Below, piece by piece: positions 46,676-58,968 of a stretch of DNA of 64,000 bases. Where the stretch lies: positions 95,394 through 159,393 of the forward strand of contig JABFGJ010000008.1 in the NCBI GenBank assembly GCA_013112545.1. Direction: 5' to 3'. The notes beneath the pieces are model-generated. The model was not told the DNA's origin. It saw nothing but the letters and a program-made list of their open reading frames with translations, and ran no database searches. Both the position numbers and the translations under genes were made by a program. How positions within the stretch are numbered: position 1 is the first letter of the stretch; each line of letters begins with the position of its first letter. The stretch is from Bacteroidota bacterium (GTDB taxonomy: Bacteria > Bacteroidota > Bacteroidia > Flavobacteriales_E > Vicingaceae).

Positions 46676-47365
46676 TCATTTGCCTTTCTTCTGTTTTTTC
46701 TCTTTTACTTCTTTGTCGTAACCGATTTGCCAAAAATACATATCCAGTATTTTCATTAGCGGATAATGTCTTTGGGTTTCAGTTTTTATAAGTTTTTGTG
46801 CTTCGTCAATTTCATTTTTGTTATCGTCAATGAAATTGAAAAGTTCGTTTAATGATGCCTCATTAAAACCTGTATGTTTCATTTTCATTTCTTTTAAGCC
46901 GTCTATGAAATACCTGTCGTAAGCAGGAACACAGCCCAATGTGCCAAGTATAATTTTGCTCAATAAAGTGTCTGTTGGTGAAATGGGCTTTGGCTTGTCT
47001 GCTCCTTTGGTGAAATAAATACTCCTGTAATATTTTGCCAATTCATCTTTCACTGCAATAATGTCTTTAATTTTTTCTCGTTTTATTTCGGTGGTTTGGT
47101 TGCATTTGAGTTTTTGACTGGTATTTGAAAATATGATGTCAACTGCTCCTTTGTGAATTAAATGATTCTTTTGAAGCAACCCGCCTGAACCTCTATACAT
47201 TCCCCAACTTGCCAAATAGAAAGCTAACTCCAAAATCTGAATTTCTGATTTTGTTGAAGAACTAAAGGAATGAAAGCAATTGTCCCAAGATTTATATCTG
47301 TGGAATTCATCTGCCGTAATGCCTGATAGGTACTTCTTAATTATTTCAACAATACTTGCTTTCAT
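46676..47365 (-). CDS. Hypothetical protein, last gene of the pAgo operon (3-nt gap after pAgo)
   Basis: 229 aa with no recognisable motif. Co-directional and tightly packed with the pAgo gene. Confidence 0.5.
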   Translation of the reverse strand: MKASIVEIIKKYLSGITADEFHRYKSWDNCFHSFSSSTKSEIQILELAFYLASWGMYRGSGGLLQKNHLIHKGAVDIIFSNTSQKLKCNQTTEIKREKIKDIIAVKDELAKYYRSIYFTKGADKPKPISPTDTLLSKIILGTLGCVPAYDRYFIDGLKEMKMKHTGFNEASLNELFNFIDDNKNEIDEAQKLIKTETQRHYPLMKILDMYFWQIGYDKEVKEKKQKKGK

Positions 47366-47368
47366 ATT

Positions 47369-48793
47369 CTACATATAAAAAGCATAGGATTCTTTTGGTT
47401 GTTCATTTTCTCCAAGGTATTTCATTATTTCCCCAACCCGTCTGGCACAGCCAATTGTGATTGGATATTTGTTGTCGAATTGGGTGTTGTTCCAGTTCAT
47501 TTTTGTTAGACCAAGGACTTCCTTGCAAACTGTCTTTACAGAAGAAACTGATTCTACGATTCGCACTTCTAAAGGAGCAGGAATATACATTCCGGGATAT
47601 GTCTGATATTGATGAACCGAGCCTCTTGTATAAAGGATGTGTCTGTTCTCTGTCAATGAAAAAACCGAGCCTCTTACTGGTGGATAAAGATTGTTTCTAA
47701 AAAAACGCAAGTCGGTTTCCATAACAGTTACAATGTCATATTCAGAAATGCCTAAATCTTGCATTGCTTGTATAAAGCCGTCTAACTCGTCTTCATAATA
47801 TTTTGAAGTTTTGTGTAGAACTACTCGACCTGGTAATGTCCCCGTAGCAAATTTGTATTTAGTTAAAGCATCTTTCAGAAGACTTAATGATTGGTCATAA
47901 GTCAAGTGGGGCTTTCTATCGTCCTTGTCTTCCGTTACAGGTGTTCCCCGAAGTATTACGCCTTTACCATTCTCATTGAAAATTTGAGCCAAACTGGTCT
48001 GAATTGTCTTTTTATCTCTGCTTCTATAAAACCCAATTCCGACAAAACAAACTTTTGGTTTGTTTTCATCAACATCCAATTTCCAAGGAATAGTTTGAAG
48101 TCCTTTGTAATAAAGTGCTGTGCAAAAGTTCCAAGCCTTTGTAGCTGCATCTTGTGATTTGTTATTGTCGTGCAAAACATACTCTCTCAATAACTGGATA
48201 GGTGTATTGTATCTCATTGCACGAGCTTTTAAAGCACGTCTAAAGTTCAATTCCAATTCAGGCTCTCCGTTATCTTCCGCATCTTGTTCTACGGGTTCAT
48301 CATCTTTATTTTCCTTTACAATTTTACCTTCAAAACTTTTTGGAATGATGCAAATGATAACATCACAATTTTTTATGTCTGATAGAAAGCCAATGTTCTC
48401 GCCAAATAATTCGACTGCATCCAATACTTTCTGATCCCTGTCAGGTTCTTTTAGAATTTTCTTAATGTCGTTTGGCGAAAGAATTCTTTCATAATTTGTA
48501 TCGTAAATTAATTTGGCACAAAATCCTTTATCTTGGTTAAAACCCGAAAATGGTTTGAACAAACCTTTTTGTTTTCCTTTGGGGTTAGCAGGTATATAAC
48601 TTTCAAATCGCTTTAACCAACCTTTTAAATTCTCAACATCTTCTTCTATTCCGATGATGCCGAGTAATAATTGATTTTTTCTTGCTTCTATGACTGTGTC
48701 ATAAACATTTAACTCTGCTATACCTTCTCTTGGACAAATACTTTTGCCTTTGCCAAATAATAAAAAAGGTTCTTGTATATAGTCCGCTTTCAT
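47369..48793 (-). CDS. Short prokaryotic Argonaute (MID-PIWI, predicted catalytically inactive)
   Basis: PIWI-like blocks: KVCFVGIGFY (position of the GIDV motif, Asp replaced), RVVLHKTSKYYEDELDGF (position of RDGVSE), DIVTVMETDLRFF, RGSVFS, and YPGMYIPAPLEV (position of the GTxxPxxY motif). MID-like region FRRALKARAMRYNTPIQLL. Start placed at the ATG 48793-48791, which forms ATGA with the stop of the upstream gene. The ORF track's alternative start at 48868 would give 499 aa. Confidence 0.7.
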   Translation of the reverse strand: MKADYIQEPFLLFGKGKSICPREGIAELNVYDTVIEARKNQLLLGIIGIEEDVENLKGWLKRFESYIPANPKGKQKGLFKPFSGFNQDKGFCAKLIYDTNYERILSPNDIKKILKEPDRDQKVLDAVELFGENIGFLSDIKNCDVIICIIPKSFEGKIVKENKDDEPVEQDAEDNGEPELELNFRRALKARAMRYNTPIQLLREYVLHDNNKSQDAATKAWNFCTALYYKGLQTIPWKLDVDENKPKVCFVGIGFYRSRDKKTIQTSLAQIFNENGKGVILRGTPVTEDKDDRKPHLTYDQSLSLLKDALTKYKFATGTLPGRVVLHKTSKYYEDELDGFIQAMQDLGISEYDIVTVMETDLRFFRNNLYPPVRGSVFSLTENRHILYTRGSVHQYQTYPGMYIPAPLEVRIVESVSSVKTVCKEVLGLTKMNWNNTQFDNKYPITIGCARRVGEIMKYLGENEQPKESYAFYM

Positions 48794-58400: not shown

Positions 58401-58674
58401 ATTCAATGAATGATTCTTTGGTGTCTTTAGCGTTAAGATTGAATAAAAGTCCTTGTTTTTGAGCTAAAGCAATGAAAGGGTCAACATTGATTCCAGCAAT
58501 GATTTTTACCTTTAAGTTGTCAGGGAAATGTTTGCGAATAGCGAAATAACCCGATGCTCTGAAATAGCCAATAACTGATTTAAAGTATTCTATATTTTTC
58601 ATATGCTCAAACACACCTACAAATTTCTTGTAGAGTGTATTCTCGCCTTGATTTGTAAAAAAGTTTGATGCCAT
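55414..58674 (-). CDS. PLD-family nuclease domain fused to an SF2 (SNF2/DEAH-like) helicase
   Basis: 1086 aa. N-terminal HxK...GSSN motifs (LHAKFYIF...MGSSNLS). Helicase motif I [9 protein letters not shown], motif II [9 protein letters not shown], motif III [9 protein letters not shown], and motif V/[41 protein letters not shown]. Confidence 0.8.
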   Translation of the reverse strand: [1086 protein letters not shown]

Positions 58675-58968
58675 TTATTTACCCTTTTTAATTTTCTTGG
58701 TTACCGACTTTAATGCCTCATCTGCAAATTGTTCATCTTTGATTACATCCATTACTTGGTCAGCTAACCAGAGTGTAAGAAGTTCTTGTTTGTCAGCATT
58801 TAATATTTCAGCCAAAGTTGCAACCTGCTCTTTTTTGATTGGTCTTTCACCTCTTTCCATTTTACTGATGATAGAAGTGTCAACGTCAAGTTTAGAAGCA
58901 ACCTGTCTTAACAGCAAGTTTTGCTTTGTCCTTAGCTCTCTTATTTTGTCTCCGAGTTGTGTCGCCAT
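58675..58968 (-). CDS. XRE-family HTH regulator (controller-protein-like) at the head of the defence operon
   Basis: 97 aa. HTH (LRTKQNLLLRQVASKLDVDTSIISKMERGE). Its start codon abuts a palindromic operator. Confidence 0.7.
   Translation of the reverse strand: MATQLGDKIRELRTKQNLLLRQVASKLDVDTSIISKMERGERPIKKEQVATLAEILNADKQELLTLWLADQVMDVIKDEQFADEALKSVTKKIKKGK

Follow-up and report, generated by a model that had tools for sequence, protein, structure and literature searches.

We describe a block of seven genes in a 64,000-nucleotide stretch of DNA (hereafter the window) from a Bacteroidota bacterium (assembly GCA_013112545.1, contig JABFGJ010000008.1, positions 95,394 to 159,393). The block occupies positions 46676-58968 of the window. 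We consider it probable that it is a five-gene restriction-modification (R-M)-like operon, made up of genes for a helix-turn-helix (HTH) regulator, an HKD-SNF2 helicase, an N6-adenine methyltransferase, an ABC ATPase and a small protein termed g7, with a two-gene prokaryotic Argonaute (pAgo) cassette embedded in it, the whole forming a single operon with two independent layers of defence. One promoter would then probably serve restriction as the first line of defence and an Argonaute NADase as the suicidal one. The host operon represents a widespread R-M-like family of Bacteroidota that is named by none of the libraries used here, and the existence of relatives in which the same slot is empty or otherwise filled makes the question of co-regulation versus synergy testable.

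All seven open reading frames lie on the minus strand. An earlier note on this DNA, made from its letters alone, had described seven tightly packed, co-directional genes, and the open reading frame table agrees with it in coordinates and in junctions, which from g1/g2 to g6/g7 measure 0, +12, -4, +4, -4 and +3 nucleotides. The first gene, g1 (58675-58968, 97 residues), encodes a C-protein-like controller of the XRE family of HTH regulators. It is followed by g2 (55414-58674, 1086 residues), with an N-terminal PLD/HKD nuclease domain and a SNF2-type superfamily 2 helicase, presumed to be the restriction subunit; by g3 (52156-55401, 1081 residues), a gamma-class N6-adenine DNA methyltransferase of Type IIG/PglX-like build with a TaqI_C-type target-recognition domain; and by g4 (50186-52159, 657 residues), an ABC/SMC-type ATPase and core partner of g2 and g3. 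The embedded short-pAgo cassette consists of g5 (48790-50181, 463 residues), its predicted effector subunit, in which a DUF4062 domain (a TIR-like NADase, also called NIR) is fused to an APAZ region, and g6 (47369-48793, 474 residues), a short (MID-PIWI) pAgo of the SPARDA clade. The last gene, g7 (46676-47365, 229 residues), is uncharacterised and closes the host operon; its predicted fold is HhH-GPD glycosylase-like. The domain labels first given to g1-g6 were borne out by Pfam, PADLOC and NCBIfam scans, in none of which a family was found for g7.

The longest open reading frame of g6 runs from a TTG start over 47369-48868. The ATG at 48793 was taken as the real start on two grounds: the match to the PADLOC pAgo_I profile sets in only at residue 26 of the long frame, and gene callers choose the same start on two metagenome contigs on which the whole block is 100% identical. 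In Aquiflexum lacus (L003 in our numbering of loci) the block is 89-99% identical at the protein level. The GC content across the cluster is unremarkable.

That the pAgo pair lies within an operon slot is seen most directly in loci that carry g7 in other company. In L086/87 and L169-173 the order is HTH, helicase, methyltransferase, ATPase and g7 (80-85% identical to ours), with no Argonaute between the last two, and L082 has the same order (g7 78% identical), again lacking an Argonaute and with no HTH gene called upstream. The ATPase and g7 are thus direct neighbours in these loci, while the slot between them is filled in the window, in L175/176, where the DUF4062-APAZ and pAgo genes stand between a different, 569-residue ATPase and a 78% identical g7, and in L168, where a 623-residue HATPase_c_3 gene separates a 90% identical ATPase from a 90% identical g7. 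In L083-85 g7 (75% identical) directly follows a Type I hsdR. DNA homology to L168, L086 and L169 ends within 20 nucleotides of the g4 stop and restarts within 20 nucleotides of the g7 start, and the linkers around the pAgo cassette are 1-5 nucleotides long. Because the breakpoints fall at gene ends and the linkers are this short, the pair occupies a slot inside the host operon rather than a place beside it. Its orientation is that of the host (all minus strand), and it is also found free-standing in two loci (L179 and L180). The earlier note had read the cluster as a restriction-like module and an Argonaute abortive-infection module packed into one operon; the combination stands, while the architecture is that of an embedded cassette, and g7 is part of the host operon and not of the Argonaute module.

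The host operon was followed further through an alignment of ATPase homologs, which gave 79 loci from species-representative GTDB genomes, nearly all of them Bacteroidota. Where enough upstream DNA was available, helicase, methyltransferase and ATPase genes followed one another in this order on one strand in 55 of 64 loci, and these three genes are the conserved core. A small HTH gene adjoins the helicase gene in about 17 of 51 loci with this triad. The ATPases themselves fall into at least three ABC subfamilies (657, 629-654 and 569 residues) that are 26-35% identical to each other. Comparison of the window (50186-52159) with L082, L086, L169 and L175 showed helicases that were 81-94% identical in loci whose ATPase was only 26-35% identical (helicase identity among close loci was 81-98%), which suggests either cassette-like swapping of the ATPase or strong diversifying selection on it. 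The family is thus a mosaic in its component genes.

The position 3' of the ATPase is a hotspot for cargo. In 40 of 76 triad loci, co-directional genes from about 50 unrelated clusters start within 120 nucleotides downstream of the ATPase, among them ABC-3C, McrBC, an HNH nuclease, a KAP NTPase, GMT-wHTH with DUF5131, a second IIG methyltransferase, HATPase_c_3 and a DUF5655 nuclease. IrrE-HTH and RhuM were also seen there (L003-L081), along with several unannotated families that are candidate new defence genes. The downstream slot of this host family could therefore be mined for such genes.

The domain composition of g1-g4 is that of an R-M-like system. In g1, Pfam recognized HTH_31 (1e-10) and HTH_3 (6e-10), and PADLOC HTH_VI, capH and Control_protein (7e-7). 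A C-protein-type controller had been proposed for it, and a small HTH gene in first position with an operator-like palindrome (see below) is indeed present; however, its PDB matches are generic XRE regulators, C.AhdI being one of several weak ones (E = 8e-4), and such a gene accompanies only about a third of the triad loci. In g2, PLDc_2 (residues 115-197) is followed by SNF2-rel_dom, ResIII and Helicase_C, with the motifs LHAKFYIF...GSSN, GTGKT and DEAH. Its best PADLOC match is HmaA (1.5e-40), with further matches to DrmD, to 'HKD+Snf2' and, on the N-terminus, to PbeA. The NCBIfam models DrmD and phospholipD_antiphage were matched far under their cut-offs (DrmD with 152 bits vs 610), and Pfam gave no C-terminal nuclease match in g2.

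The methyltransferase g3 matches Eco57I (8e-39), TaqI_C and N6_Mtase in Pfam, REase_MTase_IIG (3e-81) and PglX in PADLOC and, in part only, the NCBIfam PglX model (101 bits vs a cut-off of 500). Motif I (DPAIGSGAF) and motif IV (NPPY) are both found. About 1 kb of the gene (53428-52443) stayed unaligned in every DNA comparison, including that with the 93% identical Aquiflexum block. We presume this segment to be hypervariable and to hold the target-recognition domain; it has the pattern that would be expected if that domain had been swapped, and hence the methylation specificity would differ. For g4, Pfam returned only SMC_N, AAA_21, AAA_23 and AAA_29, with a Walker A motif GENGSGKS and a Walker B motif FIVFDD. 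Pfam gave no DUF499 match and PADLOC no HmaC match for it, and it has no CxC hook, its only two Cys being at positions 53 and 580.

In the cassette, g5 carries DUF4062 (PF13271) at residues 7-89 (3e-25), followed by the APAZ region, and matches the PADLOC APAZ-partner model PDLC02415 ('Aga_REase-PNTD1-PNTD2') with 5e-97. Among PDB sequences, residues 7-102 match the DUF4062 domain of KpSwz and residues 215-451 the APAZ part of SPARDA DREN-APAZ/DUF4365 chains, the alignment to DREN-APAZ taking in residues 202-451 only. No match to the TIR family (TIR/TIR_2) was found in Pfam. DUF4062 has been demonstrated to be a TIR-like NADase, the likeness to TIR being at the level of the fold only (bioRxiv 10.64898/2026.05.01.722283), and its association with short pAgo was noted in one preprint (bioRxiv 10.64898/2026.09.04.749371). 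The catalytic Glu position of DUF4062/NIR NADases (KpSwz E97, PsAvs2 E108) is kept in g5 as E85. This residue lies opposite the Ala of the E97A KpSwz chain 10wc_A, a numbering deduced by counting, and is invariant in 18 family members (alignment A3).

The partner gene g6 matches PADLOC pAgo_I with 1e-176 and, in the PDB, the SPARDA pAgo 9jsb_A with 7e-71 vs 2e-33 for the SPARTA short pAgo. A pAgo of about 470 residues next to an APAZ protein, with genes overlapping by 4 nucleotides, is the arrangement of a short-pAgo system. As a member of the short-pAgo clade, g6 is assumed to have lost the catalytic DEDX tetrad of PIWI. Since the effector is a DUF4062 domain of the TIR-like NADase kind and keeps the catalytic Glu, the g5-g6 pair is likely to act by guide-directed depletion of NAD+.

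The APAZ region of g5 was also met in the plasmid collection, where matches H2-H6 and H11 (e.g., NC_008826.1 and NZ_OY725757.1) place it in proteins annotated as 'SMEK domain-containing' and in DUF4365 proteins. The SMEK fusions point to another effector variant and to a modular APAZ scaffold. The same collection held no full-length g5 homolog and no g7, only APAZ fused to SMEK or DUF4365, or isolated DUF4062.

Homologs of g5 form 201 clusters, mostly from Bacteroidota, and their contexts were sampled from long contigs only. Across host contexts the DUF4062-APAZ/pAgo pair is 81-92% identical. Besides filling the ATPase/g7 slot of the window and of L175/176, it follows the ATPase in L183/184, which have no g7; within Type I R-M operons it separates hsdS from hsdR in L177/178 (Bacteroidales bacterium CF), with a 1-nucleotide overlap of pAgo stop and hsdR start, and in L181/182 (Flammeovirgaceae); and it is free-standing in an integrative conjugative element of Arenibacter (L179) and behind its own 69-residue HTH gene in Roseivirga (L180). 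Small co-directional genes precede the free copies at a distance of 21-46 nucleotides. The 90% cluster of the pAgo has 186 members, and those with names come from Prolixibacteraceae, Mucilaginibacter, Kapabacteria and Aquiflexum, a distribution that suggests a recent horizontal spread. The HATPase_c_3 gene that fills the slot in L168 (about 620 residues; 8146-10017) was also seen in L180 (4024-5889), from Roseivirga thermotolerans, behind its own HTH gene and a few kb from the free-standing pAgo pair; the same cargos seem to circulate among the same islands.

The earlier note had proposed to look at synteny in related genomes, where homologous loci that always keep the two modules separate would have told against their union. 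The comparison found them joined in several lineages: triad and pAgo pair recur together in at least three besides that of the window, namely L175/176, L183/184 and, by inference, a Kapabacteria contig. Among the 79 GTDB loci, however, only one (that of Aquiflexum lacus) has the pair, so the association of cassette and host is recurrent but facultative.

A working model can be proposed on this basis. The g3 methyltransferase would mark host DNA, and the g2 helicase-nuclease, aided by the g4 ATPase, would attack incoming DNA that is unmethylated. The pAgo-APAZ heterodimer, its cassette having been embedded by recombination between the ATPase gene and g7, would use small guides to detect invader nucleic acid, and target recognition would activate the DUF4062 TIR-like NADase, leading to NAD+ depletion and aborted infection. 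The Argonaute layer would have a SPARTA-like output on a SPARDA-like scaffold. We infer co-transcription, autoregulation and every biochemical activity in this model from the sequence.

The two layers are independent in this model, and an alternative is that the cassette cooperates mechanistically with the host R-M machinery. Guides for the pAgo, or exposed targets, could come from single-stranded DNA or breaks made by the helicase-nuclease or Type I HsdR, and NAD+ depletion could fire only when restriction is engaged but failing. The contexts of the cassette lend this some appeal, as the 81-92% identical pair sits seamlessly in two unrelated classes of ATP-dependent translocating R-M operons, the HKD-SNF2/methyltransferase/ABC hosts (window, L003, L175 and L183) and the Type I hosts (L177 and L181), with stop/start overlaps with host genes that suggest stoichiometric co-expression, and four of the six independently sampled contexts are R-M-type operons. 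However, six is a small sample, the free-standing pairs of L179 and L180 indicate that coupling is not obligatory, the many unrelated cargos of the slot fit a generic hotspot, and embedded systems described in the literature are active when cloned on their own (bioRxiv 10.1101/2024.01.29.577857). We regard such coupling as unlikely. We are similarly doubtful of its broader form, in which the cassette is specifically adapted to ATP-dependent translocating R-M operons of both classes as a coupled second layer. The host family (HKD-SNF2 helicase, N6-adenine methyltransferase, exchangeable ABC ATPase, glycosylase-like g7 and flanking repeats of 50 nucleotides) would in that case be an R-M-like system in its own right, not described before, with a slot reserved for cargo. 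If this were true, DNA processing by the host restriction motor would provide guides or single-stranded targets and so arm the pAgo, and NAD+ depletion would follow when restriction is engaged but overwhelmed.

Whether the two layers share one transcript bears on the preferred reading, that of a single operon with an embedded cassette. TAnnTTTG is the -7 promoter consensus of Bacteroidetes. Over 13 kb of coding strand it occurs four times (5.3 expected), and only the predicted -7 box at 58998-59005 on the minus strand, TATATTTG, lies within 250 nucleotides upstream of any gene start; none was found within that distance of g2-g7. The box ends 30 nucleotides upstream of the g1 ATG and would be the promoter of g1. 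It overlaps a perfect palindrome, TTGACAAA-A-TTTGTCAA (59000-58984), 16 nucleotides upstream of the ATG, which in turn overlaps TTGTC-AA-GACAA (58990-58979). Together they make up a putative operator (58979-59000) with three GACAA/TTGTC half-sites between the -7 box and the ATG.

These signals are conserved in orthologous loci. The position of the -7 box is kept upstream of g1 orthologs in L169, L086, L025, L047, L005 and others, and a TTG(A/C)CAA..TTTGTCAAGAC pattern in L003, L086, L169, L025 and L183, with related GAC..GTC patterns in more distant loci; the arrangement of promoter and palindrome persists even at 35-46% identity of the g1 protein. It is probable that g1 binds the GACAA/TTGTC palindromes and autoregulates the operon. 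The suggestion of the earlier note that the only obvious promoter and operator lie upstream of the first gene therefore holds, and the strong internal promoters or terminators that would have spoken against it (for example before 50181) were sought by promoter prediction across the cluster and a generic terminator scan, with none convincing found on the minus strand inside the cluster. A scan for sigma-70-type promoters was uninformative, being built on the wrong consensus for Bacteroidota, and was replaced by the TAnnTTTG scan. A terminator after g7 was also considered and set aside: the stability of an imperfect hairpin there (46576-46644) did not reach significance (z = -1.27), and RNAalifold gave no consensus structure.

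It could nevertheless be that the pAgo pair, g7 or both are driven mainly by a promoter of their own inside upstream coding sequence, outside the control of g1. Cassettes that hop between operons would gain from carrying a promoter, promoter prediction in Bacteroidota is unreliable, and weak sigma-70-like matches do occur at 50188-50159 and 50133-50104. However, conserved cassette DNA begins at the g5 ATG, and the sequence upstream of it is wholly different between contexts, so that no promoter travels with the cassette. No TAnnTTTG lies within 250 nucleotides upstream of g5, g6 or g7, and even the free copies follow co-directional genes closely. Separate transcription of this kind appears quite improbable to us. 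The gene overlaps, the single promoter box, the lack of an internal terminator and the lack of a promoter in cassette DNA support one transcription unit, and most likely all seven genes are transcribed from the promoter upstream of g1.

The operon is also bracketed, as direct repeats on the coding strand, by a conserved non-coding element of about 50 nucleotides with the core ..GCCCACSCRCATTTGGCACA..TTGCC..CACAAGCCSAMC. An upstream copy lies at 59117-59170 on the minus strand (nhmmer E = 3e-12), a weaker second upstream copy at 59216-59254 (E = 2e-4), and a downstream copy at 46608-46656 on the minus strand (E = 2e-7), starting 20 nucleotides after the g7 stop. No other copies were found by nhmmer in the 64-kb window, and Rfam at gathering threshold gave no matches in the whole window. 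The element upstream of g1 is kept in L169, L183, L048, L067 and L073, even where g1 is 35-46% identical, and the downstream copy is kept together with g7 in L168 and L169-L174. DNA homology past the end of g7 was seen as well. In L169 the element is found at 332-384 and 10065-10112. A terminator, an insulator, a recombination site or an RNA are candidates for its role.

The attribution of g7 to the host leaves little room for the view that two modules merely abut, a restriction-like g1-g4 and a three-gene Argonaute system g5-g7 with g7 as an Argonaute accessory. It is true that the window, L003 and L175 have g7 behind the pAgo, and that several g5 and g7 homologs seem to share contigs. However, g7 adjoins the ATPase in the absence of a pAgo in L082, L086 and L169-173, follows HATPase_c_3 in L168 and hsdR in L083, and the pAgo pair occurs apart from g7 in L177, L179, L180, L181 and L183, which makes this division of the cluster very hard to maintain.

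The g7 family is abundant, with more than 6000 homologs, of which the best 120 are 71-100% identical; in the metagenome scan most were 35-50% identical and stood in unrelated, unclassified contexts. The AlphaFold model of g7 (predicted local distance difference test, pLDDT, 80.6) is mostly helical. An HhH-GPD glycosylase-like fold is only weakly indicated, by modest scores, and the g7 profile matched no PDB sequence. In our own reading, the invariant GCVPAYDRYF loop is reminiscent of the Gly/Pro...Asp loop of the HhH-GPD superfamily, and as a lead only, g7 may read or excise modified bases. Other small unannotated families occupy the g7 position elsewhere, with proteins of about 193 residues (L007/L009/L018/L022) and about 260 residues (L033/L035/L037/L042). 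These two and g7 have a [VFY]P[AI]YD motif in common, with weak homology statistics (hhalign E = 0.056). When g7 was compared with small proteins encoded behind the ATPase in other loci (clusters C0 and C1), phmmer gave E = 0.03-0.17 and hhalign E = 0.056 at a probability of 1%, and a P-x-Y-D motif was all that they had in common. As an abundant, unannotated family attached to R-M operons, g7 poses a testable question of function.

Directly upstream of the block, on the same strand, two genes encode Fic-domain proteins of 535 residues (59577-61184) and 361 residues (61374-62459), the latter built as Fic_N/Fic/SoFic-like_C; both may be additional components of a defence or toxin island. Between the Fic genes and the operon lies a hairpin that resembles a terminator and has a T-run (59239-59221). 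Defence genes do cluster in general, and two Fic genes are next door, but chance adjacency in a defence island, free of shared regulation or selection, is scarcely credible given junctions of -4 to +12 nucleotides on one strand, the same cassette in the same slot in independent lineages with differing flanking ATPases, and replacement that is exact at gene boundaries.

Several points weigh against the reading of a single host operon with an embedded NADase cassette. Co-transcription is predicted from spacing and motif scans, promoters may lie inside coding sequence, and the sigma-70-type scan gave 64 matches against 52 +/- 7 expected, one of them at 50188-50159, although with a consensus unfit for Bacteroidota. 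Only about one triad locus in three has the HTH gene, and g7 is missing from most GTDB triad loci and may thus be an optional cargo, not part of the core. The PLD motif of g2 keeps the His and Lys but not the Asp of HxKxxxxD, and its nuclease activity is therefore uncertain. None of g1-g4 reaches any NCBIfam cut-off, so functional analogies hold at the domain level only, and g5-g7 match no NCBIfam model. Finally, we found no published test of NADase activity or guide-dependent activation for a DUF4062-type pAgo.

Nesting of one defence system in another is not new in itself. Complete systems are nested in the same orientation in Hma, BREX, DISARM and Type I R-M operons (Payne et al., bioRxiv 10.1101/2024.01.29.577857; Liu et al., PMC11232893), 96.7% of nested systems share the orientation of their host, and co-regulation has been proposed (bioRxiv 10.1101/2024.01.29.577857; PMC11232893; PMC12839542). 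The 'unusual degree' of physical and regulatory fusion that the earlier note saw in this locus was thus overstated. The present case resembles these embedded systems in having a complete defence module, able to work separately, between the genes of a larger R-M-like host, in the same orientation, in a slot of variable cargo whose flanking genes are adjacent when it is empty. It differs in that the host is not Hma, BREX, DISARM or Type I, in that the cargo is a short-pAgo system (the term 'argonaute' was not found in the supplements of Payne et al.), and in that the slot is 3'-terminal, flanked by the ATPase gene and a small last gene.

Among possible relatives of the host, the DUF499-centred Type-2 'BREX-related' systems (PMC12839542) are similar in their N-terminal HKD endoDNase-Swi2/Snf2 helicase, N6-adenine methyltransferase, ATPase and small extra protein, as well as in the auxiliary effectors embedded in their loci. 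However, the ATPase here is of the ABC/SMC type and not a DUF499 AAA+ protein, the methyltransferase is of the Eco57I/TaqI_C type, and g7, which lacks a Pfam match and whose model is mostly helical, is not DUF3780, a family described as alpha+beta; no Pfam match to DUF3780 was found in any gene of the cluster. Hma, or Type-1 BREX-related, systems (PMC8565338; PMC11232893) share the logic of helicase, methylase and ATPase, HmaA is the best PADLOC match of g2, and these operons are a known hotspot for inserted defence genes (PMC8565338; PMC11232893). Unlike them, g2 has an N-terminal PLD domain where HmaA has a C-terminal PD-(D/E)xK (NOV_C) nuclease, g4 is of the ABC type where HmaC is a DUF499 protein, and g3 is an NPPY N6-adenine enzyme where HmaB is described as an m5C methyltransferase. 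A canonical Hma system was rejected for want of the C-terminal nuclease on g2 and of a DUF499 ATPase.

The CxC-ABC/PbeABCD systems (PMC10853773) are alike in combining an ABC ATPase with a restriction component of HKD and superfamily 2 helicase, and in having DNA methylases in some loci, but g4 lacks the CxC zinc hook, no DndE/PbeD partner is present, and the methylase is an N6-adenine and not an m5C or N4 enzyme. PbeABCD was rejected as an identity of the host operon. Canonical DISARM was rejected because Pfam found no DUF1998 gene in the cluster, with only a partial DrmD-like match in g2, and canonical BREX because Pfam found no PglZ or BrxC domains in it, with only a partial PglX match in g3.

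The cargo falls between the two short-pAgo systems with which it can be compared. Like SPARTA, it is a two-gene short pAgo with an APAZ partner that carries an NAD+-hydrolysing TIR-fold domain, and guide-dependent NAD+ depletion would be expected; unlike SPARTA, the effector belongs to DUF4062 ('NIR'), a separate Pfam family, and the pAgo is far nearer to SPARDA. Both the pAgo and the APAZ region have their nearest relatives of solved structure in SPARDA (DREN/DUF4365-APAZ). However, the DREN nuclease of that system is here replaced by DUF4062, and for that reason NADase and not collateral nuclease activity would be expected. Whether a SPARDA-type pAgo scaffold drives a DUF4062 NADase is a testable question.

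The regulator recalls the C proteins of R-M systems such as C.AhdI and C.PvuII, with a small XRE HTH gene in first position and palindromic half-sites that overlap its own promoter. The similarity in sequence is only generic, the C-box of C-protein R-M systems is GACT/AGTC whereas the operator here is GACAA/TTGTC, and the regulator is absent from about two-thirds of the related operons. Compared with all of these systems, what is new here is an unnamed host family with an ABC ATPase that carries a short-pAgo NADase as its cargo, and the seamless reuse of the same cargo in Type I operons.

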